A DNA stretch of 64,000 nucleotides from Eledone cirrhosa (Eukaryota). The stretch lies in NCBI GenBank assembly GCA_964016885.1, contig OZ024764.1, forward strand, positions 26,908,001 through 26,972,000, read 5' to 3'. A program made the position numbers and the translations under genes. This document shows, in pieces, positions 9,751-64,000 of the stretch. The notes under the pieces are model-generated. The model was not told the DNA's origin. It was given only the letters and a program-made list of their open reading frames with translations, and made no database searches. Numbering within the stretch: position 1 is the stretch's first letter; every line of letters starts with the position of its first letter.

Positions 9751-9811
9751 AAGATTAAGTTTTAAGATGTGAAAAATATAAAACTGAAATTTCATATAAA
9801 AGTTCAAATAT

Positions 9812-34192: not shown

Positions 34193-37100
34193 GATTTATT
34201 AGCCACAGGGGCAGAGATGTCCATAACATTACATGTCAGAATTATTAGCCACAGGGGCAGAGATGTCCATAACATTACATGACAGAATTATTAGCCACAG
34301 GGGCAGAGATGACCATAACATTACATGACAATTATTAGCCACAGGGGCAGATATGTCAATAACATTACATGACAGAGTTTCATCTCGCGCTCTCTCTCTC
34401 TCGTTTCATCTTGCGCTCTCTCTCTCCCGTTTCATCTCGCTCTCTCTCTCTCTCGTTTCATCTCTGTCTTCCTCTCTTTCGTTCCATCTCTCTCTTCCTC
34501 TCTCTCGTTCCATCTCTCTCTTCCTCTCTCTCGTTTCATCTCTATCTCCCTCCTTTCATCTGTCTCTCTCTCTGTCGTTTCATCTCGCGCTCTCTCTCTC
34601 TCATTTCATCTCGCTCTCTCTCTCTCTTTCGTTTCATCTCTGTCTTCCTCTCTCTCGTTCCATCTCTCTCTTCCTCTCTCTCGTTCCATCTATCTCTTCC
34701 TCTCTCTCGTTTCATCTCTATCTCCCTCGTTTCATCTCTCTCTCGCTCTCTCGTTTCATCTCTCTCTCCCTCTCGTTTCATCTCGCTCTCTCTCTCCTGT
34801 TTCATCTCGCTCTCTACTCTCGTTTCCTCTCTCTCGTTTCCTCTCTGTCTCGTTTCATCTCGCTCTCTCTCTCTCTCTCGTTTGATCTCGCTCTCACTCT
34901 CTCGTTTCATCTCGCTTCTCTCACTCTCGGGTTTCATCTCGCTTCTCTCACTCTCGGGTTTCATCTCGCTCTCCCTGTCTCATTTCACTTCGCTCTTTCT
35001 CTCTCTTCCTCTCTCTCTCTTGTTTCAACACTCTAATCCCTCACTTGTTTTATCTCTCTCTAATCCCTCACTTGTTTCATCTCTCTCAGAATTATTAGCC
35101 ACAGGGGCAGAGATGTCCATAACATTACATGTCAGAATTATTAGCCACAGGGCAGAGATGTCCATAACATTACATGTCAGAATTATTAGCCACAGGGGCA
35201 GAGATGTCCATAACATTACATGACAGAATTATTAGCCACAGGGGCAGAGATGTCCATAACATTACATGACAGAATTATTAGCCACAGGGGCAGAGATGTC
35301 CATAACATTACATGACAATTATTAGCCCCAAGGGCAGATATGTCCATAACATTACATGACAGAGTTTCATCTCGCGCTCTCTCTTTCCCTCTCTCTCGTT
35401 TCATCTCGCTCTCTCTGTCTCTCGTTTCATCTCGCTCTCTCGTTTCATCTCGCTCTCTCTCGTTTCATCTCTGTCTTCCTCTCTCTCGTTCCATCTCTCT
35501 CTTCCTCTCGCTCGTTCCATCTCTCTCTTCTTCTCTCTCGTTTCATCTCTATCTCCCTCCTTTCATCTGTCTCTCTCTCTGTCGTTTCATCTCGCGCTCT
35601 CTCTCTCTCGTTTCATCTCGCGCTCTCTCTCTCTCGTTTCATCTCGCTCTCTCTCTCTCGTTTCATCTCTGTCTTCCTCTCTCTCGTTCCATCTCTCTCT
35701 TCCTCTCCCTGGTTTCATCTCTCTCTCCCTCTCGTTTCATCTCGCTCTCTCTCTCCTGTTTCATCTCGCTCTCTACTCTCGTTTCCTCTCTCTCGTTTCC
35801 TCTCTGTCTCGTTCCATCCCGCTCTCTCTCTCTCTCATTACATGTATCTCTTTCTGTCTCGTTTCATCTCGCTCTCTCCCTCTCTCGTTTCATCTCGCTC
35901 TCACTCTCTCGTTTCATCTCGCTTCTCTCACTCTCGCGTTTCATCTCGCTCTCCCTGTCTCATTTCATCTCGCTCTCTCTCTCTCTCTTCCTCTCTCTCT
36001 CTTGTTTCAACACTCTAATCCCTCACTTGTTTTATCTCTCTCTAATCCCTCACGTGTTTCATCTCTCTCAGAATTATTAGCCACAGGGGCAGAGATGTCC
36101 ATAACATTACATGTCAGAATTATTAGCCACAGGGCAGAGATGTCCATAACATTACATGTCAGAATTATTAACCACAGGGGCAGAGATGTCCATAACATTA
36201 CATGACAGAATTATTAGCCACAGGGGCAGAGATGACAATAACATTACATGACAATTATTAGCCACAGGGGCAGATATTTCAATAACATTACATGACAGAG
36301 TTTCATCTCGCGCTCTCTCTCTCTCGTTTCATCTTGCGCTCTCTCTCTCCCGTTTCATCTCGCTCTCTCTCTCGTTTCATCTCTCTCGTTCCATCTCTCT
36401 CTTCCTCTCTCTCGTTCCATCTCTCTCTTCCTCTCTCTTGTTTCATCTCTATCTCCCTTGTTTCATCTCTCTCTCGCTCTCTCGTTTCATCTCGCTCTCC
36501 CTCTCGTTTCATCTCGCTCTCTCTCTCCTGTTTCATCTCGCTCTCTCTCTCTCTCGTTTCATCTCTGTCTTCCTCTCTCTCGTTCCATCTCTCTCTTCCT
36601 CTCTCTCGTTTCATCTCTATCTCCCTCGTTTCATCTCTCTCTCGCTCTCTCGTTTCATCTCTCTCTCCCTCTCGTTTCATCTCGCTCTCTCTCTCCTGTT
36701 TCATCTCGCTCTCTCTCTCTCCTGTTTCATCTCGCTCTCTACTCTCGTTTCCACTCTCTCTCGTTTCATCTCTCTCTCCCTCCCGTTTCATCTCGCTCTC
36801 TCTCTCTCTCGTTTCATCTCGCCCTCACTCTCTCGTTTCATCTCGTTCTCTCTCTGTCTCGTTTCATCTCGCTCTCTCTCTCTCATTTCATCTCGCTCTC
36901 TCTCTCTCATTTCATCTCGCTCTCTCTCTCTCGTTTCATCTCGCTCCCACTCTCTCGTTTCATCTCGCTCTCACTCTCTCGTTTCATCTCACTCTCCCTG
37001 TCTCGTTTCATCTCGCTCACACTCTCTCATTTCATCTCGCTCTCTCTCTCTTGTTTCAACACTCTAATCCCTCACTTGTTTCATCTCTCTCAGAATTTTT

Positions 37101-40100
37101 AGCCACAGGGGCAGAGATGACCATAACATTACATGTCAGAATTATTAGCCACAGGGGCAGAGATGTCCATAACATTACATGTCAGAATCATTAGCCACAG
37201 GGGCAGAGATGTCCATAACATTACATGACAGAATTATTAGCCACAGGGGCAGAGATGACCATAACATTACATGACAATTATTAGCCACAGGGGCAGATAT
37301 GTCAATAACATTACATGACAGAGTTTCATCTCGCGCTCTCTCTCTCTCGTTTCATCTTGCGCTCTCTCTCTCTCGTTTCCTCTCGCTCTCTCTCTCTCTC
37401 GTTTCATCTTTGTCTTCCTCTCTCTCGTTCCATCTCTCTCTTCCTCTCTCTCGTTTCATCTTGCGCTCTCTCTCTCCCGTTTTATCTCGCTCTCTCTCTC
37501 TCTCTCGTTTCATCTCTGTCTTCCTCTCTCTCGTTCCATCTCTCTCTTCCTCTCTCTCTTCCTCTCTCTCGTTTCATCTCTATCTCCCTTGTTTCATCTC
37601 TCTCTCGCTCTCTCGTTTCATCTCGCTCTCTCTCTCCTGTTTCATCTCGCTCTCTCTCTCTCTCGTTTCATCTCTGTCTTCCTCTCTCTCGTTCCATCTC
37701 TGTCTTCCTCTCTCTCGTTCCATCTCTCTCTTCCTCTCTCTCGTTTCATCTCTATCTCCCTCGTTTCATCTCTCTCTCGCTCTCTCGTTTCATCTCTCTC
37801 TCCCTCTCGTTTCATCTCGCTCTCTCTCTCCTGTTTCATCTCGCTCTCTCTCTCTCCTGTTTCATCTCGCTCTCTACTCTCGTTTCCACTCTCTCTCGTT
37901 TCATCTCTCTCTCCCTCCCGTTTCATCTCGCTCTCCCTCTCTCGTTTCATCTCGCTCTCACTCTCTCGTTTCATCTCGTTCTCTCTCTGTCTCGTTTCAT
38001 CTCGCTCTCTCTCATTTCATCTCGCTCTCTCTCTCTCATTTCATCTCGCTCTCTCTCTCTCGTTTCATCTCGCTCACACTCTCTCATTTCATCTCGCTCT
38101 CTCTCTCTTGTTTCAACACTCTAATCCCTCACTTGTTTCATCTCTCTCAGAATTATTAGCCACAGGGCAGAGATGTCCATAACATTACATGTCAGAATCA
38201 TTAGCCACATGGGGCAGAGATGTCCATAACATTACATGCCAGAATTATTAGCCACAGGGGCAGAGATGTCCATAACATTACATGACAATTATTAGCCCCA
38301 TGGGCAGATATGTCCATAACATTACATGACAGAGTTTCATCTCGCTCTCTCTCTCTCTCGTTTCATCTCTGTCTTCCTCTCTCTCGTTCCATCTCTCTCT
38401 TGCTCTCTCTCGTTCCATCTCTATCCTCCTCTCTCTCGTTTCATCTCTATCTCCCTCCTTTCATCTGTCTCTCTCTCTGTCGTTTCATCTCGCGCTCTCT
38501 CTCTCTCGTTTCATCTCGCGCTCTCTCTCTCTCGTTTCATCTCGCGCTCTCTCTCACTCGTTTCATCTCGCTCTCTCTCTCTCTCGTTTCATCTCTGTCT
38601 TCCTCTCTCTCGTTCCATCTCTCTCTTCCTCTCTCTCGTTTCATCTCTATCTCCCTCGTTTCATCTCTCTCTCGCTCTCTCGTTTCATCTCTCTCTCCCT
38701 CTCGTTTCATCTCGCTCTCTACTCTCGTTTCCTCTCTCTCGTTTCCTCTCTGTCTCGTTCCATCCCACTCTCTCTCTCTCATTACATCTCGCTCACTCTG
38801 TCTCGTTTCATCTCGCTCTCTCTCTCTCTCGTTTCATCTTGCTCTCTCTCTCTCGTTTCATCTCGCTTCTCTCACTCTCGCGTTTCATCTCGTTCTCCCT
38901 GTCTCATTTCATCTCGCTCTCTCTCTTCCTCCCTCTCTCTTGTTTCAACACTCTAATCCCTCACTTGTTTTATCTCTCTCTAATCCCTCACTTGTTTCAT
39001 CTCTCTCAGAATTATTAGCCACAGGGGCAGAGATGTCCATAACATTACATGTCAGAATTATTAGCCACAGGGCAGAGATGTCCATAACATTACATGTCAG
39101 AATTATTAGCCACATGGGGCAGAGATGTCCATAACATTACATGCCAGAATTATTAGCCACAGGGGCAGAGATGTCCATAACATTACATGGCAGAATTATT
39201 AGCCACAGGGGCAGAGATGTCCATAACATTACATGACAGAATTATTAGCAACAGGGGCAGAGATGTCCATAACATTACATGTCAGAATTATTAGACACAG
39301 GGCAGAGATGTCCATAACATTACATGACAATTATTAGCCCCAAGGGCAGATATGTCCATAACATTACATGACAGAGTTTCATCTGGCGCTCTCTCTCTTC
39401 CTCTCTCTCGTTTCTTCTCGCTCTCTCTCTCTCTCGTTTCATCTCGCTCTCTCGTTTCATCTCGCTCTCTCTCGTTTCATCTCTGTCTTCCTCTCTCTCT
39501 TCCTCTCGCTCATTCCATCTCTCTCTTCCCCTCTCTCGTTTCATCTCGCGCTCTCTCTCTCTCGTTTCATCTCTCTCTCTCTCTCGTTTCATCTCAGTCT
39601 TCCTCTCTCTCGTTCCATCTCTCTCTTCCTCTCTCTTGTTTCATCTCTATATCCCTCGTTTCATCTCTCTCTCCCTCTCGTTTCATCTCGCGCTCTCTCT
39701 CCTGTTTCATCTCGCTCTCTACTCTCCTTTCCTCTCTCTCGTTTCCTCTCTGTCTCGTTCCATCCCGCTCTCTCTCTCTCTCATTACATCTCGCTCTCAC
39801 TCTCTCGTTTCATCTCGCTTCTCTCACTCTCGCGTTTCATCTCGCTCTCCCTGTCTCATTTCATCTCGCTCTCTCTCTCTCTTCCTCTCTCTCTCTTGTT
39901 TCAACACTCTAATCCCTCACTTGTTTTATCTCTCTCTAATCCCTCACGTGTTTCATCTCTCTCAGAATTATTAGCCACAGGGGCAGAGATGTCCATAACA
40001 TTACATGTCAGAATTATTAGCCACAGGGCAGAGATGTCCATAACATTACATGTCAGAATTATTAACCACAGGGGCAGAGATGTCCATAACATTACATGAC

Positions 40101-43100
40101 AGAATTATTAGCCACAGGGGCAGAGATGACTATAACATTACATGACAATTACTAGCCACAGGCGCAGATATGTCAATAACATTACATGACAGAGTTTCAT
40201 CTCGCGCTCTCTCTCTCTCGTTTCATCTTGCGCTCTCTCTCTCCCGTTTCATCTCGCTCTCTCTCTCTCTCGTTTCATCTCTGTCTTCCTCTCTCTCGTT
40301 CCATCTCTCTCTTCCTCTCTCTCGTTCCATCTCTCTCTTCCTCTCTCTCGTTTCATCTCTATCTCCCTTGTTTCATCTCTCTCTCGCTCGCTCGTTTCAT
40401 CTCTCTCTCCCTCTCGTTTCATCTCGCTCTCTCTCTCCTGTTTCATCTCGCTCTCTCTCTCTCTCGTTTCATCTCTGTCTTCCTCTCTCTCTTCCACTCT
40501 CTCGTTTCATCTCTCTCTCCCTCGTTTCATCTCTCTCTCGCTCTCTCGTTTCATCTCTCTCTCCCTCCCGTTTCATCTCGCTCTCTCTCTCCTGTTTCAT
40601 CTCGCTCTCTCTCTCTCCTGTTTCATCTCGCTCTCTACTCTCGTTTCCACTCTCTCTCGTTTCATCTCTCTCTCCCTCCAGTTTCATCTCGCTCTCTCTC
40701 TCTCGTTTCATCTCGCTCTCGCTCTCTCGTTTCATCTCTCTCTCCCTCTCGTTTCATCTCGCTCTCTCTCTCCTGTTTCATCTCGCTCTCTCTCTCTCTC
40801 GTTTCATCTCTGTCTTCCTCTCTCTCGTTCCATCTCTGTCTTCCTCTCTCTCGTTCCATCTCTCTCTTCCTCTCTCTCGTTTCATCTCTATCTCCCTCGT
40901 TTCATCTCTCTCTCGCTCTCTCGTTTCATCTCTCTCTCCCTCTCGTTTCATCTCGCTCTCTCTCTCCTGTTTCATCTCGCTCTCTCTCTCTCCTGTTTCA
41001 TCTCGCTCTCTACTCTCGTTTCCACTCTCTCTCGTTTCATCTCTCTCTCCCTCCCGTTTCATCTCGCTCTCCCTCTCTCGTTTCATCTCGCTCTCACTCT
41101 CTCGTTTCATCTCGTTCTCTCTCTGTCTCGTTTCATCTCGCTCTCTCTCATTTCATCTCGCTCTCTCTCTCTCATTTCATCTCGCTCTCTCTCTCTCGTT
41201 TCATCTCGCTCACACTCTCTCATTTCATCTCGCTCTCTCTCTCTTGTTTCAACACTCTAATCCCTCACTTGTTTCATCTCTCTCAGAATTATTAGCCACA
41301 GGGCAGAGATGTCCATAACATTACATGTCAGAATCATTAGCCACATGGGGCAGAGATGTCCATAACATTACATGCCAGAATTATTAGCCACAGGGGCAGA
41401 GATGTCCATAACATTACATGACAATTATTAGCCCCATGGGCAGATATGTCCATAACATTACATGACAGAGTTTCATCTCGCTCTCTCTCTCTCTCGTTTC
41501 ATCTCTGTCTTCCTCTCTCTCGTTCCATCTCTCTCTTGCTCTCTCTCGTTCCATCTCTATCCTCCTCTCTCTCGTTTCATCTCTATCTCCCTCCTTTCAT
41601 CTGTCTCTCTCTCTGTCGTTTCATCTCGTGCTCTCTCTCTCTCGTTTCATCTCGCGCTCTCTCTCTCTCGTTTCATCTCGCGCTCTCTCTCACTCGTTTC
41701 ATCTCGCTCTCTCTCTCTCTCGTTTCATCTCTGTCTTCCTCTCTCTCGTTCCATCTCTCTCTTCCTCTCTCTCGTTTCATCTCTATCTCCCTCGTTTCAT
41801 CTCTCTCTCGCTCTCTCGTTTCATCTCTCTCTCCCTCTCGTTTCATCTCGCTCTCTACTCTCGTTTCCTCTCTCTCGTTTCCTCTCTGTCTCGTTCCATC
41901 CCACTCTCTCTCTCTCATTACATCTCGCTCACTCTGTCTCGTTTCATCTCGCTCTCTCTCTCTCTCGTTTCATCTTGCTCTCTCTCTCTCGTTTCATCTC
42001 GCTTCTCTCACTCTCGCGTTTCATCTCGTTCTCCCTGTCTCATTTCATCTCGCTCTCTCTCTTCCTCCCTCTCTCTTGTTTCAACACTCTAATCCCTCAC
42101 TTGTTTTATCTCTCTCTAATCCCTCACTTGTTTCATCTCTCTCAGAATTATTAGCCACAGGGGCAGAGATGTCCATAACATTACATGTCAGAATTATTAG
42201 CCACAGGGCAGAGATGTCCATAACATTACATGTCAGAATTATTAGCCACATGGGGCAGAGATGTCCATAACATTACATGCCAGAATTATTAGCCACAGGG
42301 GCAGAGATGTCCATAACATTACATGGCAGAATTATTAGCCACAGGGGCAGAGATGTCCATAACATTACATGACAGAATTATTAGCAACAGGGGCAGAGAT
42401 GTCCATAACATTACATGTCAGAATTATTAGACACAGGGCAGAGATGTCCATAACATTACATGTCAGAATTATTAGCCACAGGGGCAGAGATGTCCATAAC
42501 ATTACATGTCAGAATTATTAGCCACAGGGGCCGAGATGTCCATAACATTACATGAAAGAATTATTAGCCACAGGGGCAGAGATGTCCATAACATTACATG
42601 ACAGAATTATTAGCCACAGGGGCAGAGATGTCCATAACATTACATGACAATTATTAGCCCCAAGGGCAGATATGTCCATAACATTACATGACAGAGTTTC
42701 ATCTGGCGCTCTCTCTCTTCCTCTCTCTCGTTTCTTCTCGCTCTCTCTCTCTCTCGTTTCATCTCGCTCTCTCGTTTCATCTCGCTCTCTCTCGTTTCAT
42801 CTCTGTCTTCCTCTCTCTCTTCCTCTCGCTCATTCCATCTCTCTCTTCCCCTCTCTCGTTTCATCTCGCGCTCTCTCTCTCTCGTTTCATCTCTCTCTCT
42901 CTCTCGTTTCATCTCAGTCTTCCTCTCTCTCGTTCCATCTCTCTCTTCCTCTCTCTTGTTTCATCTCTATATCCCTCGTTTCATCTCTCTCTCCCTCTCG
43001 TTTCATCTCGCGCTCTCTCTCCTGTTTCATCTCGCTCTCTACTCTCCTTTCCTCTCTCTCGTTTCCTCTCTGTCTCGTTCCATCCCGCTCTCTCTCTCTC

Positions 43101-46100
43101 TCTCATTACATCTCGCTCTCTCTGTCTTGTTTCATCTCGCTCTCTCTCTCTCTCGTTTCATCTCGCTCTCACTCTCTCGTTTCATCTCGCTTCTCTCACT
43201 CTCGCGTTTCATCTCGCTCTCCCTGTCTCATTTCATCTCGCTCTCTCTTTCTCTTCCTCTCTCTCTCTTGTTTCAACATTCTAATCCCTCACTTGTTTTA
43301 TCTCTCTCTAATCCCTCACGTGTTTCATCTCTCTCAGAATTATTAGCCACAGGGGCAGAGATGTCCATAACATTACATGTCAGAATTATTAGCCACAGGG
43401 CAGAGATGTCCATAACATTACATGTCAGAATTATTAACCACAGGGGCAGAGATGTCCATAACATTACATGACAGAATTATTAGCCACAGGGGCAGAGATG
43501 ACTATAACATTACATGACAATTACTAGCCACAGGCGCAGATATGTCAATAACATTACATGACAGAGTTTCATCTCGCGCTCTCTCTCTCTCGTTTCATCT
43601 TGCGCTCTCTCTCTCCCGTTTCATCTCGCTCTCTCTCTCTCTCGTTTCATCTCTGTCTTCCTCTCTCTCGTTCCATCTCTCTCTTCCTCTCTCTCGTTCC
43701 ATCTCTCTCTTCCTCTCTCTCGTTTCATCTCTATCTCCCTTGTTTCATCTCTCTCTCGCTCGCTCGTTTCATCTCTCTCTCCCTCTCGTTTCATCTCGCT
43801 CTCTCTCTCCTGTTTCATCTCGCTCTCTCTCTCTCTCGTTTCATCTCTGTCTTCCTCTCTCTCTTCCACTCTCTCGTTTCATCTCTCTCTCCCTCGTTTC
43901 ATCTCTCTCTCGCTCTCTCGTTTCATCTCTCTCTCCCTCCCGTTTCATCTCGCTCTCTCTCTCCTGTTTCATCTCGCTCTCTCTCTCTCCTGTTTCATCT
44001 CGCTCTCTACTCTCGTTTCCACTCTCTCTCGTTTCATCTCTCTCTCCCTCCCGTTTCATCTCGCTCTCTCTCTCTCGTTTCATCTCGCTCTCACTCTCTC
44101 GTTTCATCTCGTTCTCTCTCTGTCTCGTTTCATCTCGCTCTCTCTCTCTCATTTCATCTCGCTCTCTCTCTCTCATTTCATCTCGCTCTCTCTCTCTCGT
44201 TTCATCTCGCTCTCACTCTCTCGTTTCATCTCGCTCCCACTCTCTCGTTTCATCTCGCTCTCCCTGTCTCGTTTCATCTCGCTCACACTCTCTCATTTCA
44301 TCTCGCTCTCTCTCTCTTGTTTCAACACTCTAATCCCTCACTTGTTTCATCTCTCTCAGAATTATTAGCCACAGGGGCAGAGATGACCATAACATTACAT
44401 GTCAGAATTATTAGCCACAGGGGCAGAGATGTCCATAACATTACATGACAGAATTATTAGCCACAGGGGCAGAGATGACCATAACATTACATGACAATTA
44501 TTAGCCACAGGGGCAGATATGTCAATAACATTACATGACAGAGTTTCATCTCGCGCTCTCTCTCTCTCGTTTCATCTTGCGCTCTCTCTCTCTCGTTTCC
44601 TCTCGCTCTCTCTCTCTCACGTTTCATCTCTGTCTTCCTCTCTCTCGTTCCATCTCTCTCTTCCTCTCTCTCGTTCCATCTCTCTCTTCCTCTCTCTCGT
44701 TTCATCTTTATCTCCCTCCTTTCATCTGTCTCTCTCTCTGTCGTTTCATCTCGCGCTCTCTCTCTCTCGTTTCATCTCGCGCTCTCTCTCTCTCATTTCA
44801 TCTCGCTCTCTCTCTCTCTCGTTTCATCTCTGTCTTCCTCTCTCTCTCTTCCTCTCTCTCATTCCATCTCTCTCTTCCTCTCTCTCGTTTCATCTCTATC
44901 TCCCTCGTTTCATCTCTCTCTCGCTCTCTCGTTTCATCTCTCTCTCCCTCTCGTTTCATCTCGCTCTCTCTCTTCTGTTTCATCTCGCTCTCTACTCTCG
45001 TCTCCTCTCTCTCGTTTCCTCTCTGTCTCGTTTCATCTCGCTCTCCCTGTCTCATTTCATCTCGCTCTCTCTCTCTCTCTTCCTCTCTCTCTCTTGTTTC
45101 AACACTCTAATCCCTCACTTGTTTTATCTCTCTCTAATCCCTCACTTGTTTCATCTCTCTTAGAATTATTAGCCACAGGGACAGAGATGTCCATAACATT
45201 ACATGTCAGAATTATTAGCCACAGGGGCAGAGATGTCCATAACATTACATGACAGAATTATTAGCCACAGGGGCAGAGATGTCCATAACATTACATGACA
45301 GAATTATTAGCCACAGGGGCAGAGATGTCCATAACATTACATGACAATTATTAGCCCCAAGGGCAGATATGTCCATAACATTACATGACAGAGTTTCATC
45401 TCGCTCTTTCTCTCTCTCGTTTCATCTCTGTCTTCCTCTCTCTCGTTCCATCTCTCTCTTGCTCTCTCTCATTCCATCTCTATCTTCCTCTCTCTCGTTT
45501 CATCTCTATCTCCCTCCTTTCATCTGTCTCTGTCTCTGTCGTTTCATCTCGCGCTCTCTCTCTCTCGTTTCATCTCGCGCTCTCTCTCTCTCGTTTCATC
45601 TCGCGCTCTCTCTCTCTCGTTTCATCTCGCTCTCTCTCTCTCTCGTTTCATCTCTTTCTTCCTCTCTCTCGTTCCATCTCTCTCTTTCTCTCTCTCGTTT
45701 CATCTCTATCTCCCTCGTTTCATCTCTCTCTCGCTCTCTCGTTTCATCTCTCTCTCCCTCTCGTTTCATCTCGCTCTCTACTCTCGTTTCCTCTCTCTCG
45801 TTTCCTCTCTGTCTCGTTCCATCCCGCTCTCTCTCTCTCTCTCTCATTACATCTCGCTCTCTCTGTCTCGTTTCATCTCGCTCTCTCTCTCTCTCGTTTC
45901 ATCTCGCTCTCACTCTCTCGTTTCATCTCGCTCTCTCGTTTCATCTCGCTCTCTCTCGTTTCATCTCTGTCTTCCTCTCTCTCGTTCCATCTCTCTCTTC
46001 CTCTCGCTCGTTCCATCTCTCTCTTCCTCTCTCTCGTTTCATCTCTATCTCCCTCCTTTCATCTGTCTCTCTCTCTGTCGTTTCATCTCGCGCTCTCTCT

Positions 46101-46884
46101 CTCTCGTTTCATCTCGCGCTCTCTCTCTCTCGTTTCATCTCTCTCTCTCTCTCGTTTCATCTCTGTCTTCCTCTCTCTCGTTCCATCTCTCTCTTCCTCT
46201 CTCTCGTTTCATCTCTATCTCCCTCGTTTCATCTCTCTCTCCCTCTCGTTTCATCTCGCTCTCTCTCTCCTGTTTCATCTCGCTCTCTACTCTCGTTTCC
46301 TTACTCTCGTTTCCTCTCTCTCTCGTTTCCTCTCTGTCTCGTTCCATCCCGCTCTCTCTCTCTCTCATTACATCTCGCTCTCTCTGTCTCGTTTCAACTC
46401 GCTCTCTCTCTCTCTCGTTTCATCTCGCTCTCACTCTCTCGTTTCATATCGCTTCTCTCACTCTCGCGTTTCATCTCGCTCTCCCTGTCTCATTTCATCT
46501 CGCTCTCTCTCTCTCTTCCTCTCTCTCTCTTGTTTCAACACTCTAATCCCTCACTTGTTTTATCTCTCTCTAATCCCCCACGTGTTTCATCTCTCTCAGA
46601 ATTATTAGCCACAGGGGCAGAGATGTCCATAACATTACATGTCAGAATTATTAGCCACAGGGCAGAGATGTCCATAACATTACATGTCAGAATTATTAAC
46701 CACAGGGGCAGAGATGTCCATAACATTACATGACAGAATTATTAGCCACAGGGGCAGAGATGTCCATAACATAACATGACAGAATTATTAGCCACAGGGG
46801 CAGAGATGTCCATAACATTACATGACAGAATTATTAGCCACAGGGGCAGATATGTCCATAACATTACATGACAGAGTTTCATCT
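34193..46884 (-). repeat. Composite satellite array, CT orientation, ~12.7 kb with a ~3.1-3.4-kb duplication
   Basis: Paired near-identical blocks start at 38310/41446, 39352/42672 and 40170/43542. Confidence 0.97.
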
Positions 46885-46923
46885 GGTTGGAGTAATAACA
46901 GTCTTGTTTATGTATATACACAC

Positions 46924-46956
<33 letters not shown>

Positions 46957-47061
46957 TGTTTGTTCTTGTATTTCTATAGAAAAGGTAAAGAAAAGAAGAA
47001 TGCTCTATGTATTGTACAGAGCTATTTAATTACATAATAAACAACAGAATATAATTATTCC

Positions 47062-49417
47062 ATGCAAATAGACTTAGAATGGAAAACATTCAGACAGAGA
47101 AGAATGGATAATGAGCGTCATAAGAGAAATTGGCCAACAATTAATATTAATGGAAATCTAGAAGAATTTCATATTAGTGATATGAATGTTTCGTGTGATC
47201 ACTGTGAAGCTTTGAAATTTAGAAATGAAAATTCTAACTGTTGTAATAAAGGAAAGGTTGTGTTGCCACCATTGCAAATATACCCCGAGAGACTGAGAAA
47301 TCTCTTTGAAAGAGGCCAGGAAGCAGTTGATTTCACAGAAACGTCTGCAATTAAAACTATATTTATTTCACTTCATTTGGTGTTACCACCCGGCAGAGGC
47401 CCGTATAGCTTTCATATTCAGGGTCAAACATATCACTACACCCCCACCTCTGTAACCTGCAGAAAATACACCACAATATGGCCAGTTATATATTATTGAT
47501 GGGAACGAAGGTGTGTAGCACAGATTGGAAGTACGACCAAATAATTGTTTCTGGCCCAAGGCCAGCAATTACTGGTACTTTATTCTATCGACCTCATAAG
47601 GATGAAAACAAAGTCAACCTTGGAGGGATTTGAACCCAGAACGTAAAGGGCCATAACCCTATGCTGCAAAGCATGGTGTCTGACGCTCTACCGATACTGC
47701 CAATCCACCGCCCTAGTACCAACAAATAATGAGTGCTCACCACAAAAAATGGCTATGATAAGAGAGGTGTTGCATGAATGTAATCCATATGTCGAATTGT
47801 ACAATACAATGCATGGCATCAAACAGCAAAGTGCAAGAAGAGAAAATTGTCGTGTACAGAACTGTGAATTAAGATTTAGAAGAGGATCAGATATGAGCTG
47901 CTATAATTTACCAACTAGTAATGATAGCTGTTGTTTTGTGGGGGATTGAGGGCAGACCACCTGTACAAAGAGATATTATCATCTTTCCTAAAGACCATCC
48001 TCCTCAGAAAATATCACATAATTCATGCCACTTGGACCTCATGACCGACCCATAATGGTGAATTTTGGTGGCATAGTGACATGGAGAGGAATGCAGGACC
48101 TGTGTTTGCAATAGACTGACAATGCAGGAGTATTACATATACAGTATAGCATATAGAGGAGGATTTAGTGCGATATATAGGGCAGGTAAATTATTTTAGC
48201 AGTATTTAGTGGAAGCCTATATGAAAGTAGAGGGATGCAGGCTTCAATATTTGAGGAACAATCAAGCCCAATTGTGAGTGGATGAGTATAATGGTTTAAT
48301 GAATTATCTAAACAGATGATAACACTGAGCCTTAAGAAATGAAGACAAGATAAGAAACAGAGAAGACATTGACAGAATCGTGTCAGCAGAAATACCTGCA
48401 TTGGAAGATGATCAAGTACTACATGAGCAGGTTTAAAAGTTTATGATCCACGGGCCATGTGGTTCTGGAAACCCTTTTCCCCCATTTATACAAAATGGAT
48501 TTTTCCAAAAGAACTATCCAAAAACCTACAGAAGGGAAACATTATTGAACCTAAATGGATACCCAGAGTACAGGAGGTGCAAGACAGGAACTGCAGTGTA
48601 AATTGGATGACATTCAGTAGATAACAGGAATGTTGTGCCATTTAATGCCTTTTTGCTTAAGAAATATTGTGCACATATTAATGTTGAAGTTTGCGCTTCT
48701 GTAAAAAGTGTCAAGTACCTCTTTAAATATGTTACATGGGGCATGATTGTACATCTATAGAAGTAACGAATAATGCATTACCTAATGAGGCTCAGAACCA
48801 ACACAACCATGATGAAATAAGAACCTATCTTTGTTGCAGGTATGTGTCTCAGCCAGAAGCAGTGTCGTGTCTGTCCGAATTTAAGCTTCATGGTACATCA
48901 CATACATTATACAGCCTAGCCACACACCTGGAGAACAAACACAGTTTACTTTCAAAGAGGCAATGCTCAGGTTGTGGTAGAAATGCAGGGACCCTTGCTG
49001 CCTGGTTCAAGCTAAATGAACTTGCTTACACCTTCTGGGATGCCGCCTCACAAACTCCAATTAAAAGCAGGATCAATAATAATGCTTCTATGGAATATTT
49101 CAATCCAGAACAGATTATGTAATGGCACAAGATTAGAAGTAGTAGAACTGCATAAACATTTTATCAAAGCTTCTCATATCTATGGTCCTTTGATGGGCAG
49201 GTGTGTTTTGATCCCAAGACTGAAGTTAGCCCCCAGTGGTGCCAACATCCTTTTTACTTTGGAAAGACCCCAGTTTCCATTAAGACTGTCATATGCCATG
49301 ACAATCAACAAGAACCATGGTCAAATACATGATAAAGTGGGTCTGTTCCTCCCTGAGCAAGTATTTAACCCTGGACAATTGTATGTTGCTTTTTCAAGAG
49401 TTCACAGACAGATGTAA
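47062..49417 (+). pseudogene. Internally deleted Helitron Rep-Hel pseudogene (copy B; lacks the satellite insert)
   Basis: N-terminal Zn-finger motif, YNLPTSND, IDRIVSAEIP, MIHGPCG, HINVEVCASVKSVKYLFKYV (Rep motif 3), DEIRTYLCCRYVS, and PIF1 C-terminus MPPHKLQLK..CNGTRL..QFPLRLSYAMTINK..GQLYVAFSRV. Many stops and frameshifts. Confidence 0.93.
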
Positions 49418-49989: not shown

Positions 49990-50632
49990 AAACTATAACA
50001 CATATAACTCTATCAGTGAAGCCCTTTAGTATAGGTCAACTGGGAAACTATAACACATATAACCCTATCAGTGAAGTCCTTTAGTATAGGTCAACTGGGA
50101 AACTATAACACATATAACCCTATCAGTGAAGTCCTTTAGTATAGGTCAACTGGGAAACTATAACATATATAACCCTATCAGTGAAGTCCTTTAGTATAGG
50201 TCAACTGGGAAACTATAACACATATAACCCTATCAGTGAAGTCCTTTAGTATAGGTCAACTGGGAAACTATAACACATATAACCCTATCAGTGAAGCCCT
50301 CTGGGAAACTATAACACATATAACTCTATCAGTGAAGCCCTTTAGTATAGGTCAACTGGGAAACTATAACACATATAACCCTATCAGTGAAGTCCTTTAG
50401 TATAGGTCAACTGGGAAATTATAACACATATAACCCTATCAGTGAAGTCCTTTAGTATAGGTCAACTGGGAAACTATAACACATATAACCCTATCAGTGA
50501 AGTCCTTTAGTATAGGTCAACTGGGAAACTATAACACATATAACCCTATCAGTGAAGTCCTTTAGTATAGGTCAACTGGGAAATTATAACACATATAACC
50601 CTATCAGTGAAGTCCTTTAGTATAGGTCAACT
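49990..50632 (+). repeat. 55-bp tandem repeat, ~12 copies
   Basis: AAACTATAACACATATAACCCTATCAGTGAAGTCCTTTAGTATAGGTCAACTGGG at 50045, 50100, 50155 and onward. One unit is shortened to 41 bp (50265-50305). Confidence 0.97.
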
Positions 50633-55018: not shown

Positions 55019-56882
55019 CATGGGTTACATATAAGGTCTCATTTTTTTTTTTCTTTCTTTCAGTTTTCTTCTTATCTCTAGATATAAATATATATACATA
55101 AGGTAATTTGGTAGAATTGTTAGAACATCAGATAGAATTCTTTGCAGTATTTTTCCAGTTCTTTACTCTGAGTTCAACTTTACCTTTCTTCCATTCGGTG
55201 TCGATAAGTCTTGAATATGTCTAACGTAGCAATAATTGGAGCTACTTAACCAAGTTTTCCCAACCTAGTCGATGTCACCTACTGGTTGGCGATTTAAACT
55301 GTTGGCTGGGACAATGACCAACTAATCATTCAGATTCGAACTCACTATGTCTGGCATATATTTTATATTTTATATTTGAATGAAGTTCTGTAAGTAACCT
55401 GGTGGCTTAGATGGCAATACTGCTCGAATAGATGGCTTCTATTATGAAGTTATAAGTTCATTCCCTATCCAGGATTGTAGAATTAATTTTATTTAGTTAT
55501 TATTTAATCAATTGTTTTAACAAACAAATTATATCTATAAAACGCCAAATATAGTGAGTTCAAATCTGACTGACATGCATGGTATATATTTATGTTTCAT
55601 TATACAACGACACAATACACAGGAACTTATAAAGATATGTATATATTGTCCAGGAGTTTCGAGTTTAGTGGGAATTGGTACAACTCTCAATTGGAGCTAG
55701 TTCCTGCAAGATCAGCATAAATAATGTTATACCTTTTCATGAAATCTTGCACACCCGATATTTTATACATGATTATTTAAAGGTGAACAAAAACCAAAGA
55801 ACATTGTGCAGCATTTCTCAACCTTTCTACCCATGTCGATCTCTTGAAATAGTTTTTATGTCTCAGGGAAGCCCTGCATAAAATATACTTTTTCTAACTC
55901 TAGAGCAGTGGTTCCCAAATCGTGTGCTGCGAGATGAAACAAGATGAGCTGCAAAAGACTAAGATTAAGTTTTAAGATGTGAAAAATATAAAACTGAAAT
56001 TTCATATAAAAGTTCAAATATAGCTACAGCCACAAACCTAGGCTCCACACCCCGCAATGCAAAGGATAGTAAGATAGTACCAAGGCCTGACTCACCTCTT
56101 CCACTCCATTGAGACCTCTGCCATACTTGGTCCCTGTACTGCTGATTTCCTCCATAAAGTCGGGAGGAAAGACGACAGGAGCCTCATGAGGAGGGGCGAC
56201 TAATGTAGCAGGTGTCTCTGGCCTTGCTCCGAGGTAACGCTTTTACGTTTCTTCCACAGGTTGCGGCTGAGGGACCACTTAGACTGGGGTGAAGTGTCTG
56301 TCCCTCCCCCGACTTCTTACTTCTTTTTTTTTCTCATTTTCATTTTCTTTTCTCTTCTTGCTTATCTCTGCTATACCACGGCATCAAAAACATATATGAT
56401 ATGTGTATGGATGGTATAGGTGTATTTATATTTAGGATAGTTATCAAAGGTAAATAGACTGGTTGGAACAATAACAGTCTTGTTTATGTATATACACACA
56501 TATATATATATATATATATATATCTGTTTGTTCTTGTATTTCCATAGAAAAGGTAAAGAAAAGAAGAATGCTCTATGTATTGTACAGAGCTATTTAATTA
56601 CATAATAAACAACAGAATATAATTATTCCATGCAAATAGACTTAGACTGGAAAACATTCAGACAGAGAAGAATGGATAATGAGCGTCGTAAGAGAAATTG
56701 GCCAACAATTAATATTAATGGAAATGTAGAAGGATTTCATATTAGTGATATGAATGTTTCGTGTGATCACTGTGGAGCTTTGAAATTTAGAAATGAAAAT
56801 TGTAACTGTTGTAATAAAGGAAAGGTTGTGTTGCCACCATTGCAAATATACCCTGAGAGACTGAGAAATCTCTTTGAAAGAG
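55019..56882 (+). repeat. Duplicated segment, copy C; ends in a truncated Helitron fragment (56630-56882)
   Basis: Near-identical direct repeat of 57612-59472. Confidence 0.95.
55102..55208 (+). mobile_element. Old degenerate SINE relic; copy at ~57697-57805
   Basis: TGGTAGAATTGTTAG head, TGAGTTCAA, and core-like CCTTTCTTCCATTCGGTGTCGATAA. Confidence 0.6.
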
Positions 56883-56902
56883 ATTTCTCAGTCTCTCAGG
56901 GT

Positions 56903-57614
56903 ATATATTCCCGCCGTTGAAATAAACATTTTAATAGAAAAACGGCGGGAATATATGTTACAACCCAATCTATATATATTTGGGTTGTAACATATATTCC
57001 CGCCGTTGAAATAAAAATTTTAATAGGAAAACGGCGGGAACATATGTTACAACCCAATCTATATATATTTGGGTTGTAACATATATTCCCGCCGTTGAAA
57101 TAAAAATTTTAATAGAAAAACGGCGGGAATATATGTTACAGCCCAATCTATATATATTTGGGTTGTAACATATATTCCCGCCGTTGAAATAAAAATTTTA
57201 ATAGAAAAACGGCGGGAATATATGTTACAACCCAATCTACATATATTTGGGTTGTAACATATATTCCCGCCGTTGAAATAAAAATTTTAGTATAAAAACG
57301 GCGGGAATATATATTACAACCCAAACATATATAGGTTGGGTTGTAACATATATTCCCGCCGTTTTTCTATTAAAATTTTTATTTCAACGGCGGGAATATA
57401 TGTTACAACCCCAAAATATGTAGCTTGGATTGTAACATATATTCCCGCCGTTTTTCTATTAAAATTTTTATTTCAACGGCGGGAATATATGTTACAACTC
57501 AAATATATATAGATTGGGTTGTAACATATATTCCCGCCGTTTTTCTATTAAAATTTTTATTTCACCGGCAGGAATATGTTACAACCCAAATATATATATA
57601 TTGAGTTGTAACAT
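56903..57614. repeat. 89-bp internally palindromic tandem repeat, ~8 copies, with orientation flip near 57330
   Basis: Each unit is a 28-bp arm (TTGGGTTGTAACATATATTCCCGCCGTT), a 22-nt spacer, the reverse complement of the arm, and an 11-nt spacer. Period 89 (56992/57081). Confidence 0.96.
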
Positions 57615-59073
57615 GGGTTACATATAAGGTCTCATTTTTTTTCTTTTCTTTCTTTCAGTTTTCTTCTTATCTCTAGATATAAATATATATACATAAGGTA
57701 ACTTGGTAGAATTGTTAGAACATCAGATAGAATTCTTTGCAGTATTTTTCCAGTTCTTTACTCTGAGTTCAACTTTACCTTTCTTCCATTCAGTGTCGAT
57801 AAGTCTTGAATATGTCTAACGTAGCAATAACTGGAGCTACTTAACCAAGTTTTCCCAACCTAGTCGATGTCACCTACTGGTTGGCGATTTAAACTGTTGG
57901 CTGCGACAATGACCAACTAATCAGTCAGATTCGAACTCACTATGTCTGGCATATATTTTATATTTTATATTTGAATGAAGTTCTGTAAGTAACCTGGTGG
58001 CTTAGATGGCAATACTGCTCGAATAGATGGCTTCTAGTTCATTCCCTATCCAGGATTGTAGAATTAATTTTATTTAGTTATTATTTAATCAATTGTTTTA
58101 ACAAACAAATTATATCTATAAAACGCCAAATATAGTGAGTTCAAATCTGACTGACATGCATGGTATATATTTATGTTTCATTATACAGCGACACAATACA
58201 CAGGAACTTATAAAGATATGTATATATTGTCCAGGAGTTTCGAGTTTAGTGGGAATTGGTACAACTCTCAGTTGGAGCTAGTCCCTGCAAGATCAGCATA
58301 AATAATGTTATACCTTTTCATGAAATCTTGCACACCCGATATTTTATACATGATTATTTAAAGGTGAACAAAAACCAAAGAACATTGTGCAGCATTCTCA
58401 ACCTTTCTACCCATGTCGATCTCTTGAAATAGTTTTTATGTCTCAGGGAAGCCCTGCATAAAATATACTTTTTCTATCTCTAGAGCAGTGGTTCCCAAAT
58501 CGTGTGCTGAGAGATGAAACAAGATGAGCTGCAAAAGACTAAGATTAAGTTTTATGATGTGAAAAATATAAAACTGAAATTTCATATAAAAGTTCAAATA
58601 TAGCTACAGCCACAAACCTAGGCTCCACACCCCGCAATGCAGAGGATAGTAAGATAGTACCAAGGCCTGACTCACCTCTTCCACTCCATTGAGACCTCTG
58701 CCATACTTGGTCCCTGTACTGCTGATTTCCTCCATAAAGTCGGGAGGAAAGACGACAGGAGCTTCATGAGGAGGGGCGACTATTGTAGCAGGTGTCTCTG
58801 GCCTTGCTCTGAGGTAACGCTTTTACGTTTCTTCCACAGGTTGCGGCTGAGGGACCACTTAGACTGGGGTGAAGTGTCTGTCCCTCCCCCGACTTCTTAC
58901 TTCTTTTTTTTTCTCATTTTCATTTTCTTTTCTCTTCTTGCTTATCTCTGCTATACCACGGCATCAAAAACATATATGATATATGTATGTATGGTATAGG
59001 TGTATTTATATTTAGGATAGTTATCAAAGGTAAATAGACTGGTTGGAGCAATAACAGTCTTGTTTATGTATGT

Positions 59074-59118
<45 letters not shown>

Positions 59119-59979
59119 TGTTCTTGTATTTCCATAGAAAAGGTAAAGAAAAGAAGAATGCTCTATGTATTGTACAGAGCTATTTAATTACATAATAAAC
59201 AACAGAATATAATTATTCCATGCAAATAGACTTAGAATGGAAAACATTCAGACAGAGAAGAATGGATAATGAGCGTCGTAAGAGAAATTGGCCAACAATT
59301 AATATTAATGGAAATGTAGAAGAATTTCATATTAGTGATATGAATGTTTCGTGTGATCACTGTGGAGCTTTGAAATTTAGAAATGAAAATTGTAACTGTT
59401 GTAATAAAGGAAAGGTAGTGTTGCCACCATTGCAAATATACCCTGAGAGACTGAGAAATCTCTTTGAAAGAGGCCAGGAAGCAGTTGATTTCACAGAAAC
59501 ATCTGCAATTAAAACTACATTTATTTCACTTCATTTGGTGTTACCACCCGGCAGAGGCCCGTATAGATTTCATATTCAGGGTCAAACATATCAATACACA
59601 CCCATCTCTGTAACCTGCAGAAAATACACCACAATATGGCCAGTTATATATTATTGATGGGAACGAAGGTGTGTAGCACAGATTGGAAGTACAACCAAAT
59701 AATTGTTTCTGGCACAAGGCCAGCAATTACTGGTACTTTATTCTATCGACCTCATAAGGATGAAAACAAAGTCAACCTTAGAGGGATTTGAACCCAGAAC
59801 GTAAAGGGCCATAACCCTATGCTGCAAAGCATGGTGTCTGACGCTCTACCGATACTGCCAATCCACTGCCCTAGTCCCAACAAATAATGACTGCTCACCA
59901 CAAAAAATGGCTATGATAAGAGAGGTGTTGCATGAATATAATCCATATGTCGAAGTGTACAATACAATGCATGGCATCA
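57612..59979 (+). repeat. Duplicated segment, copy D
   Basis: Direct repeat of 55019-56882, continuing as 10640-11150. Confidence 0.95.
59220..59979 (+). pseudogene. Helitron Rep-Hel 5' part (copy D)
   Basis: Same Zn-finger and GPYxFHIQGQ motifs. Colinear with 47062-47821. Confidence 0.88.
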
Positions 59980-61534
59980 CAAATGAATATATATATATAT
60001 ACTACTAAAGTGTATGTAAAATTTTAAAATAAATACTTAAATTCAATTTGTATAATTACACATACAATATGTTTTGTTGTAAAACCCTAAATAATGATTT
60101 AAGAAATGATGTCAATCTCTTTGTACAGAGAAAAACAATTTATATATATGCATCGTGTATACTCCATTTAAGACAGCGAAAAACCTAGTACCTCCTTCAA
60201 AGAATGCCAAATAGTTTATGCCTAAGGTGTAACACTAATTAAGTTACTGGTATAGATATTTCAGTTGAACCCTGCTTCAAACATGCATATTATTATTATA
60301 TATTTTCAAACACACTTACATACATTATATTTATACACATAGAAATGTTAAAACTAAAGTATAATGATATAACAACAGTATATAATAGTTTTCTTCACTT
60401 TATTGAGATGCAATCGTTTTAAAGAAAAAACATGACAGTATAAGAAATATTTAATATGATAACATAATATTTCAGGTAGGATGGTGGTTTCTCTTTGAAC
60501 TAATAATTGTTTCTACTTTAGGCACAAGGCCAGCAATTAACCAGTACATTACTGGTACTTTATTTTATCGACCCCGTAAGGATGAAAGGCAAAGTTAACC
60601 TCGGATCGTAAAGGGACGTAACTATGCTGGAAAGCATGGCGTCAGACCCTCTACCGATACTGCCAATTCACCATACAGTATAATTATACAAATATGCATA
60701 TAGATAGCAATATATATACACTAATATGTATGTACATATTTATACATATATACATATATATAGGGAGAGAGAGAGACACATGTATGTATATATATATACA
60801 CATGCGTGTATGTATGTGTTTATGTACATTCTTCGGTATATATATATGAGTCACGGTTTATTACACATTGGAGACACAGAGAGAAAGAGTTGAAACGAGA
60901 GGTGAGAGAGTTGAAACAAGAGAGGAGAGAGTTGAAACGAGAAAAGAGAGAGAGAGTTGAAACGAGAGGAGAGAGAGAGAGAGTTGTAACGAGAGGAGAG
61001 AGAGAGAGAGAGTTGAAACGAGAGGAGAGAGAGTTGAAACGAGGAGAGAGTTGAAACAAGAGGGTGAGGGGAGAGAGGGGAGAGAGTGATGAAACGAGTC
61101 GGAGATAGAGTGTGAAAGAGAGAGAGAGAGGAAGAGAGAGAGAGAGAGGAAGAGAGAGAGAGAGGAAGAGAGAGAGAGAAAGAGAGAGAGAGAGGAAGAG
61201 AGAGAGAGGAAGAGAGAGAGAGGAAGAGGGAGAGGGGGGATGAAACAAGAGGGTGAGGGATGAAACAAGAGAGAGAGGGGAGAGAAAGAGAGAGGGGAGA
61301 GAAAGAGAGAGGGGAGAGAAAGAGAGAGAGAGAGAGAGAACGAATTGAAACAAGAGAGAGATGAAACAAGTGAGGGATTAGAGTGTTGAAACAAGAGAGA
61401 GAGGAAGAGAGAGAGAGAGCAAGATGGAACGAGAGAGAGAGAGCGAGATGAAATGAGAGCGAGATGAAACGAGAGAGAGAGAGAGTGAGATGAAATGAGA
61501 GAGAGAGAGAGCGAGAGAGAGAGCGAGATGAAAC

Positions 61535-61566
<32 letters not shown>

Positions 61567-62552
61567 TGAAATGAGACAGAGAGAGCGAGATGAAACGAGA
61601 GAGAGAGAGAGCGAGATGAAATGAGAGAGTGAGTGCGAGATGAAATGAGAGAGAGTGAGAGCGAGATGAAATGAGAGAGAGAGAGCGAGATGAAACGAGA
61701 GAGAGAGAGAGCGAGATGAAATGAGAGAGAGTCAGAGCGAGATGAAATGAGAGAGTGAGAGCGAGATGAAATGAGAGAGAGAGAGCGAGATGAAATGAGA
61801 GAGAGTGAGAGCGAGATGAAATGAGAGAGAGAGAGCGAGATGAAATGAGAGAGAGAGGAAACGAGACTAGAGAGCGAGATGAAACAGGAGAGAGAGAGCG
61901 AGATGAAACAGGAGAGAGAGAGCGAGATGAAACAGGAGAGAGAGAGCGAGATGAAACGAGAGGGAGAGAGAGATGAAATGAGAGAGCGAGAGAGAGATAG
62001 AGGGAGATGAAACGACAGAGAGAGAGACAGATGAAACGAGAGAGAGAAATAGAGATGAAACGAGAGAGAGTGATGAAACGAGAGAGAGGAAGAGAGAGAT
62101 GGAACGAGAGAGAGGAAGAGAGAGATGGAACGAGAGAGAGGAAGACAGAGATGAAATGAGAGAGAGGAAGACAGAGATGAAACGAGAGAGAGAGAGAGCG
62201 AGATGAAACGAGAGAGAGAGAGCGCGAGATGAAACTCTGTCATGTAATGTTATGGACATATCTGCCCCTGGGGCTAATAATTCTGTCATGTAATGTTATG
62301 GTCATGTCTGCACCTGTGGCTAATAAATCTGTCATGTAATGTTATGGTCATCTCTGCCCCTGTGGCTAATAATTCTGTCATGTAATGTTATGGACATCTC
62401 TGCCCCTGTGGCTAATAATTCTGACATGTAATGTTATGGACATCTCTGCCCCGGTGGCTAATAATTCTGACATGTAATGTTATGGACATCTCTGCCCCTG
62501 TGGCTAATAATTCTGACATGTAATGTTATGGACATTGCTATCTTGTTTCATC
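59980..62552 (+). other. ~2.6-kb insert in the Helitron: AT-rich segment with SINE, GTTGAAAC lead-in, one GA block and ~6.5 46-bp monomers
   Basis: Flanks GGCATCA|...|TCAAACAGC compared with the empty site GGCATCAAACAGC at 47815-47827. Confidence 0.85.
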
Positions 62553-64000
62553 TCAAACAGCAAAGTGCAAGAAGAGAAAATTGTCGTGTACAGAACTGTG
62601 AATTAAGATTTAGAAGAGGATCAGATATGAGCTGCTCTAATTTACCAACTAGTAATGATAGCTGTTGTTTTGTGGGGGATTGAGGGCACACCACCTGTAC
62701 AAAGAGATATTATCATCTTTCCTAAAGACCATCCTCCTCAGAAAATACCACATAATGCATGCCACTTGGACCTCATGACCGACCGATAATGGTGAATTTT
62801 GGTGGCATAGTGCCATGGAGAGGAATGTAGGACCTGTGTTTGCAATAGACTGACAATGCAGGAGTATTACATATACTGTATAGCATATAGAGGAGGATTT
62901 AGTGCGATATATAGGGCAGGTAAATTATTTTAGCAGTATTTAGTGGATGCCTATATGAAAGTAGAGGGATGCAGGCTTCAATATTTGAGGAACAATCAAG
63001 CCCAATTGTGAGTGGATGAGTATAATGGTTTAATGAATTATCTAAACAGATGATAACACTGAGCCTTAAAAAATGAAGACAAGATAAGAAACAGAGAAGA
63101 CATTGACAGAATCGTGTCAGCAGAAATACCTGCATTGGAAGATGATCCAGTACTACATGAGCAGGTTTAAAAGTTTATGATCCACAGGCCATGTGGTTCT
63201 GGAAACCCTTTTCCCCCATTTATACAAAATGGATTTTTCAAAAAGAACTATCCAAAAACCTACAGAAGGGAAACATTATTGAACCTAAATGGATACCCAG
63301 AGTACAGGAGGTGCAAGACAGGAACTGCAGTGTAAATTGGATGACATTCAGTAGATAACAGGAATGTTATGCCATTTAATGCCTTTTTGCTTAAGAAATA
63401 TTGTGCACATATTAATGTTGAAGTTTGCGCTTCTGTAAAAAGTGTCAAGTACCTCTTTAAATATGTTACATGGGGCATGATTGTACATCTATAGAAGTAA
63501 CGAATAATGCATTACCTAATGAGGCTCAGAACCAACACAACCATGATGAAATAAGAACCTATCTTTGTTGCAGGTATGTGTCTCAGCCAGAAGCAGTGTC
63601 GTGTCTCTCGGAATTTAAGCTTCATGGTACATCACATACAGTATACAGCCTAGCCACACACCTGGAGAACAAACAGAGTTTACTTTCAAAGAGGCAATGC
63701 TCAGGTTGTGGTAGAAATGCAGGGACCCTTGCTGCCTGGTTCAAGCTAAATGAACTTGCTTACACCTTCTGGGATGCCGCCTCACTAACTCCAATTATAA
63801 GCAGGATCAATAATAATGCTTCTATGGAATATTTCAATCCAGAACAGATTATGTAATGGCACAAGATTAGAAGTAGTAGAACTGCATAAACATTTTATCA
63901 AAGCTTCTCATATCTATGGTCCTTTGATGGGCAGGTGTGTTTTGATCCCAAGACTGAAGTTATCCCCCAGTGGTGCCAACATCCCTTTTACTTTGGAAAG
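62553..64000 (+). pseudogene. Helitron Rep-Hel 3' part (copy D), running off the window end
   Basis: Colinear with 47819-49266, including the same internal deletions. Confidence 0.92.

Follow-up and report, generated by a model that had tools for sequence, protein, structure and literature searches.

The window, by which is meant the whole 64,000-nucleotide stretch analysed here (C25:26,908,001-26,972,000, in a genome of 3.0 Gb), contains copies A, B and D of a Helitron relic together with long and short blocks of satellite DNA (Table 1). Remnants of a Helitron Rep domain (PF14214, E 1.4e-7, read through with stops as X) and of a PIF1 helicase (PF21530, E 5.3e-14), both above curated cut-offs, were detected in the host sequence, which reads as a broken, dead Helitron. 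The left flanks of copies B and D match at 97.2% (46883-47821 vs 59039-59979) and the right flanks at 98.5% (47819-49266 vs 62553-64000). An empty form of the host unit is arranged in tandem on C23 with a period of 8.2 kb, and the C23 arrays hold this form alone. Other repeat insertions are also present in the same host relic. By eye, the open reading frames listed for the C22 and C23 units amounted only to low-complexity frames and transposon debris, and no match was returned by Rfam for the window and four loci or by ARAGORN for nine loci; as neither genes nor structured RNAs were found, the satellite domain is most likely inert, heterochromatic DNA.

The insert of copy D and its read support

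In copy B the empty site is unbroken and reads GGCATCAAACAGC from 47815, and in copy D the host sequence is interrupted after 59979 and continues with TCAAACAGC (62553), as an earlier note on this DNA had reported. The intervening insert (59980-62552) is 2,573 bp in length and, also as reported, holds a single GA-rich block (approximately 60873-62235) and 6.5 copies of a 46-mer (62236-62535). The further claim that copy A has the same left junction and lead-in and then continues into about 35 kb of satellite is also confirmed: copy A shares the junction with one substitution (GGCATAA), its lead-in has in addition an extra SINE-like copy, and satellite then runs from 12270 to 46882 (about 34.6 kb), where it stops in inverted orientation at another position of the host.

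The right end of the short insert is backed by short-read data in two runs, as raw reads in X14 and as contigs in X2, and the internal joints of the lead-in are likewise backed by short-read data in two runs. Mean depth in X14 (raw reads from another study) was 16/37 in the bin of the D junction vs 17/43 in the next host bin. A single contig of X5, a run labelled with a second organism, crosses both internal lead-in joints, and this run also holds the GA-to-46-mer, 46-mer-to-GA and empty junctions. The D right end was not seen in X1 and X5, runs of too low a depth for this to carry information; among the runs checked no record spans the whole insert and no long read crosses it, and no RNA record holding the queried sequence was listed.

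Table 1. Features of the window (positions are those of the 64,000-nucleotide stretch).
Feature	Position	Strand	Remarks
Junction jA and host left flank of copy A	9336-11149	+	Return from 46-mer to host sequence, 1.8 kb upstream of the site
Copy A lead-in	11150-12270	+	Extra SINE-like copy 11263-11457; 17-bp repeat at B/C joint
Forward sub-array of GA/46-mer higher-order units	12270-34195	+	15 blocks
Foldback (inversion) centre	34180-34206	.	Orientation flip
Inverted sub-array	34196-46882	-	13 blocks; ends at jB (46870-46892), fused to copy B
Copy B	46883-49417	+	Broken, internally deleted Helitron Rep-helicase relic; empty site 47815-47827
Host unit, left flank of copy D	57612-59979	+	Macrosatellite unit of transposon debris
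Host 15-mer, inverted copy of which forms the insert's right end	58511-58525	-	Also in C23 empty units L071 and L075
Lead-in piece A	59978-60280	+	Source 6.2-kb C22/C24 macrosatellite; CA microhomology to host
Lead-in piece B	60281-60495	+	Same C22/C24 family, 1.8 kb further along donor unit; TCAACA microhomology, one extra A
Lead-in piece C	60496-60872	+	Precedes B in donor; SINE-like copy 60501-60672
Single ordered GA-rich block	60873-62235	+	Colinear with the opening block of copy A; no donor found
46-mer run, 6.5 copies	62236-62535	+	Monomer identical in kind to stand-alone C26 arrays
Right end	62536-62554	+	Inverted local copies: 10 bp = 60702-60711, 15 bp = 58511-58525; TC microhomology to host at end
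Helitron relic resumes	62553-64000	+	Alignment to copy B

Empty, short and long lineages in the genome

Searches of the genome with exact patterns returned 44 right junctions, 101 left junctions and 86 empty sites. The reversed-pattern controls returned none, and because of this the observation of an insert in empty, single-block and amplified states is real and not due to chance. When the pattern was taken without host flank, 46 right ends were found, all of them in Helitron-unit clusters. Junctions and empty sites alike cluster on C25, at 14.7 Mb and from 26.43 to 29.09 Mb along its length of 29.35 Mb, on C20 and C1, and at two places on C18. The trio of empty, short and long forms recurs every few tens of kb across approximately 2.6 Mb of C25, where the window represents one period of a composite array that is also present on C18 and C20. 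The three states are not the local snapshot for which they had been taken, as the lineages repeat dozens of times on three contigs. Within 264 kb around the window, 51% of which is satellite, 6-18 mismatches per 5.1 kb separate three D copies, which are therefore not identical assembly duplicates.

On the forward arm of C25, 20 of the 50 left junctions reach a right junction 2,484-3,028 bp further on, and the other 30 open spans of 16.5-44.5 kb that end at jB (17), at jA (12) or at another left junction (1). A lead-in marker is present at a distance of 2.2-4.5 kb from 24 of the remaining 26 right ends; one of the two outliers consists of a single block (L152), the other of a single block with an inverted array attached to it (L159). 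Not one of the 46 right junctions closes a same-orientation multi-block array (unmapped copies being judged by length) and the long arrays end elsewhere, results that give no support to the proposal that one copy had expanded in place. The original right junction is kept in no long array, each one mapped being folded back and joined to a stretch of host that lies upstream of the site. Five long arrays and one partly in view are present in the 264-kb stretch, all with an identical inversion centre, of which 58 exact copies were found on C18, C20, C25 and C644; this shared centre is explained by one event copied many times.

A tree of host flanks was built from 57 distinct rows, identical sequences having been dropped. 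It placed 26 of the 27 filled rows in one group, with weak support (76/90), within which D and A formed separate subgroups; three rows were misplaced, as recombinants would be. B-type flanks grouped with the empties, so that jB is best read as an array fused to a neighbouring empty unit and not as the right end of A itself. The earlier suggestion of one insertion origin followed by duplication of the host segment is supported.

The earlier note had also recognized that a D unit nested among the array variants would represent a collapsed and not a founder state. No such nesting was observed: a private string of monomers is common to D copies from three contigs, and four D monomer types, which make up 40 of 120 D monomers, are absent from the arrays (0 of 1003 monomers). 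The first monomer of D is intermediate between the C26 type and the commonest first monomer of the arrays, one step nearer to the C26 type, and the first GA blocks of D and A are colinear (47 vs 48 tokens). Relative to the donors, D carries two substitutions and a 5-bp deletion as derived changes; most D copies have 7.5 46-mers, the window's copy having lost one monomer and a further 8 bp. The same structure would result if an early array, with both junctions at its borders, had shrunk to a single block through recombination of its first unit with its last; flank recombinants between D and A do exist (L141, L149), and four C18-25.0 units look like real collapses. However, the lack of any right junction closing a same-orientation multi-block array, the private monomers, the first monomer nearer to the C26 type and the colinear GA blocks all argue against such a contraction, which we consider improbable. 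D is instead best read as a sister lineage of A with its own derived changes, founder-like without being the literal ancestor of A.

Sources of the pieces and the joints between them

The lead-in consists of three pieces (A, B and C) of a macrosatellite with a period of 6.2 kb on C22/C24, arranged as A, C, B in the donor and as A, B, C in the insert, and the donor family sequence runs on beyond every lead-in boundary. Joint homologies were identified as CA between host and piece A, TCAACA with one extra A between A and B, and TG with one extra T between B and C. The SINE-like copy in piece C sits at the same place in two C24 donor copies, and a 17-bp re-copied stretch is present at the B/C joint of copies A and C18-25.0. 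Of 721 donor-family candidates 40 were scored, and the nearest fetched copies differ from the lead-in by 4.6-5.6% substitutions; a further search for closer donors brought up none below 4.6%, and no single fetched copy was best for all three pieces. Divergence between the D flank and other host flanks is 1.6-3.1%, about half the figure for the lead-in and its donors. The donor gap of approximately 5% may indicate that the lead-in was assembled earlier, or that the true donor has been lost or lies outside the 40 of 721 candidates scored.

The 46-mer gave 7,931 matches genome-wide (about 7,900 monomers), mapped mainly to three contigs among the matches listed. Stand-alone arrays lacking a GA block are present on C26 at 6.51, 5.73 and 10.98 Mb (approximately 342, 48 and 52 monomers, in that order), and a diverged relative of approximately three monomers at C26:21.73 Mb has the same ragged right edge and flank as the 6.5-Mb array. 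The earlier note implied that the 46-mer was born in the insert; these stand-alone arrays and the diverged proto-repeat point to its earlier presence, and the monomer is most likely older than the insert and pre-existing on C26. Variant 5A was found in 33 of 120 D monomers, 261 of 1003 array monomers and 1 of 441 C26 monomers, a distribution consistent with capture from a C26-like array and later change, and on grounds of parsimony the direction of transfer was probably from C26 to the insert. A search of C26 for an ordered run of monomers as in D gave 2 hits, which is not significant (p 0.17). A site on C7, where 2.8 monomers are dropped into other sequence, is more likely an escaped copy than a donor. 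A second dispersed family resembled the 46-mer weakly (the score was reached by 0-3 of 60 shuffles, the case being chosen by eye), and this resemblance has been superseded by the C26 proto-repeat.

No donor of the GA block was found, and GA markers occurred only in Helitron clusters among the matches listed; exact counts were 54 for the lead-in-to-GA joint and 46 for a 22-mer of the GA block, both confined to Helitron-unit clusters. A GA-rich array on C24 has tokens related to those of the GA block, a relationship that does not show it to be the donor.

The spread of these sources bears on a stepwise assembly, in which the cassette would have been put together by several separate repair events, at this site or at some locus since lost or missing from the assembly, before it was copied into the Helitron relic or finished there. 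Its lead-in stands about 5% from the nearest donors compared with about 2% among host flanks, the lead-in donors lie on C22/C24 and the 46-mer arrays on C26, and the relic received other repeat insertions too. Yet homogenisation of the host flanks may have reduced their divergence, an intermediate consisting of the lead-in alone between the two host junctions was not found, and no free lead-in patchwork was present beyond the host junction in 100 listed of 115 matches, the single outlier being a donor-family copy at C24:13.98 Mb. Assembly in several steps is rather unlikely, though of the alternatives to a single episode of repair it is the one to be taken most seriously.

The last 17 bp of the insert are inverted local copies: a stretch of 15 bp corresponds to host sequence 1.4 kb upstream, and an overlapping one of 10 bp to lead-in piece C; a 14-bp alternative source for the 15-mer is found in the GA satellite itself. 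This right-end piece shares TC with the resuming host. Since the left CA is shared with the donor and the right TC with the inverted piece, the TCA at either side of the insert reads as two microhomologies and not as a target duplication. Microhomology is present at all four joints for which both templates are known: CA, TCAACA (+A), TG (+T) and TC. Two of the four are only 2 bp long and two require one extra base. The joints of piece C with the GA block and of the GA block with the 46-mer fall outside this count, no GA-block donor being available.

The earlier note could be read as describing a mobile cassette that duplicated 3 bp of its target and has no clear TIRs. The lack of TIRs holds, no inverted repeat linking the two termini being present in the 25 longest of 165 inverted pairs. 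The mobile cassette is not supported: a genome search with both ends recovered only this host site, and no unrelated insertion site was found genome-wide with exact patterns or patterns allowing 1-2 mismatches (among the matches listed, 100 of 115 for the lead-in). A cut-and-paste DNA transposon with a 3-bp TSD was rejected for the lack of TIRs in the 25 longest pairs and of independent insertions with their own TSD among the matches listed, and a retrotransposed copy for the lack of a poly-A or simple tail and of a 7-20 bp TSD. If the left boundary is shifted by 3 bp a Helitron-style 5' TC between A and T can be read, in a left end that is internal to the donor unit, and the insert has a central tandem array after a microsatellite-like segment, as in a Helentron HINE. 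A non-autonomous Helitron was rejected as the 3' end is CATC and not CTRR after a hairpin, and a Helentron HINE as the target lacks TT and neither dispersal nor a 3' palindrome was observed, nor subTIRs in the 25 longest pairs. A non-autonomous HINE- or Helitron-like element, or one of another class making 3-bp target duplications, that carried a central satellite would account for the flanking TCA, the shifted 5' TC and a resemblance to the central tandem repeats described for oyster Cg_HINE (PMC7492417), but the left end lies inside the donor unit, and with the termini, target and single site described above such an origin is highly improbable. Given that its ends were found at this Helitron-relic site alone, the insert is taken not to be a transposon.

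Proposed origin, parallels and meaning

The insert is a patchwork of pieces that match other repeats, probably copied into a dead Helitron by template-switching repair and probably amplified passively at a later time within a large tandem unit. This filler-DNA reading is favoured because most pieces trace to separate sources that continue past the breakpoints, the joints carry microhomology, and both ends occur at one host site. From these observations, the composition of the insert and its lineages, we infer the order of events, the repair process and the route of amplification. A break in one copy of the 8-kb empty unit would have been filled by serial template switches (MMBIR/SD-MMEJ-like 'filler DNA'). 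Lineage D would have kept the single block, and sister lineage A would have gained a 46-mer-to-GA joint, giving rise to the higher-order unit, folded back once, and lost its original right end when it fused with the host at a point 0.9 or 1.8 kb upstream of the insertion site, in most cases that of an empty unit. Unequal exchange and segmental duplication would then have multiplied composites of 10-60 kb into megabase blocks on C25, C20 and C18.

Several known systems resemble parts of this history. Filler-DNA capture in Helitrons (PMC6544945) likewise places host DNA with traceable sources inside a Helitron, with junction homologies of 2-13 bp there and 2-6 bp here; in the present case, however, the Helitron is dead and spreads in a tandem unit, and the captured DNA consists of other satellites and seeds a megabase array. 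FoSTeS/MMBIR as outlined in PMC5120786 shares the use of several templates, microhomologies, short locally templated junction inserts and inverted pieces, but concerns de novo human rearrangements of kilobases to megabases, whereas here an old, fixed 2.6-kb event is seen whose enzymatic route is unreadable from sequence. The macro-dyads of Tribolium madens (PMC13081366) are similar in their megabase extent, inverted sub-arrays of tens of kb and conserved inversion sites, and a composite of satellite and microsatellite is also described in that account. They make up 38% of the genome, and are likely to be (peri)centromeric on every chromosome, in contrast to the approximately 7,900 monomers on three main contigs here, where the inversion centre is restricted to C18, C20, C25 and one small contig and its sharing is explained by descent from one event. 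The Cg_HINE Helentrons of the Pacific oyster, in the description given in PMC7492417, also tie tandem arrays to Helitron-type sequence; here no subTIRs (25 longest pairs), TT target or element dispersal were seen and the satellite is foreign to the Helitron. The formation of satellites from shuffled transposon debris is among the topics reviewed in PMC12628747. Neither an octopus satellite of this kind nor work on repair-born composite satellites was found by title in the literature, where supplementary repeat libraries could already list the monomer.

A bolder reading, which is improbable and offered as speculation, is that a single accident of repair gave rise to a composite satellite, the entire history of which has been preserved in one genome, from proto-repeat, pure array and captured block to higher-order unit, foldback and megabase domain, and that the macro-dyad domains are now young centromeres or pericentromeres of three small chromosomes. 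The locus would matter more if the inverted domains proved to be centromeric; no function is shown here. The locus is largely explained by known processes and is unusual in how completely its history can be read. It also provides a caution, in that a neat 3-bp 'target duplication' accompanied by an empty site can consist of two microhomologies. The origins of satellites are usually erased, whereas here most steps are readable at base level, and these steps point to template-switching repair, not transposition, as the process that joined unrelated repeats into a new higher-order unit that grew to megabase size.

Atypical insert copies on C18 and C25

Four host units at C18:25.03 Mb (L066, 4300-8700) were found to carry a shortened GA block fused mid-monomer to ~4.5 46-mers, together with jA, the junction at which long arrays meet the host 1.8 kb upstream of the insertion site. 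These units likely represent true collapsed arrays. At the same locus the Helitron relic is broken by a distinct ~54-bp tandem repeat. Copies of the short-insert (D) type at C25:14.68-14.72 Mb (L062-L065) have lost the boundary between host and lead-in by deletion, and their single block of 13-36 monomers is almost homogeneous. The extra SINE-like copy in the lead-in of copy A is present in some long-array (A-type) copies only and is flanked on both sides by a ~14-bp direct repeat.

Features of the window
Feature	Position in window
Additional SINE-like copy, copy A lead-in	11263-11457
55-bp tandem repeat within host unit, ~11 copies	49990-50632
Copy C break, palindrome, inverted array and host restart	55019-59472

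Rearrangement of the host unit and its domain

At 56882 the host sequence of copy C gives way to a palindrome of 61 bp and to an array of ~89-bp repeats in inverted orientation, after which the host begins again from 55019, the duplicate being 97.3% identical. This is a further foldback/template-switch scar within the host unit. On a larger scale, the C25 domain (26.4-29.1 Mb) itself has an inverted layout, with units forward up to 28.0 Mb and reverse from 28.64 Mb, and the three stretches sampled between these arms contained unrelated sequence. The 55-bp host-unit repeat is longer in the copies at C18 ~25.0 Mb than in the window. In addition, GTTTCATC immediately precedes host re-entry both at the right junction of copy D (62545-62552) and at jB (46876-46883), the array-host fusion 0.9 kb upstream of the insertion site.

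Related repeats at other loci

The left end of the pure 46-mer array at C26:6.51 Mb interrupts a common LINE, and 0.5 kb from this array lies a ~120-bp tandem repeat of ~12 copies (C26:6.528 Mb; L181, 8080-9590). The large GA-rich array at C24:27.01 Mb (L096, 8170-10000; L186), which carries TGAAACAAG motifs and has a copy of the lead-in donor family 3 kb away, is possibly a relative of the insert's GA block. At C7:42.17 Mb (L091, 4763-4893), 2.8 nearly identical 46-mers are set within unrelated sequence, presumably SINE-like, and probably represent an escaped satellite seed.
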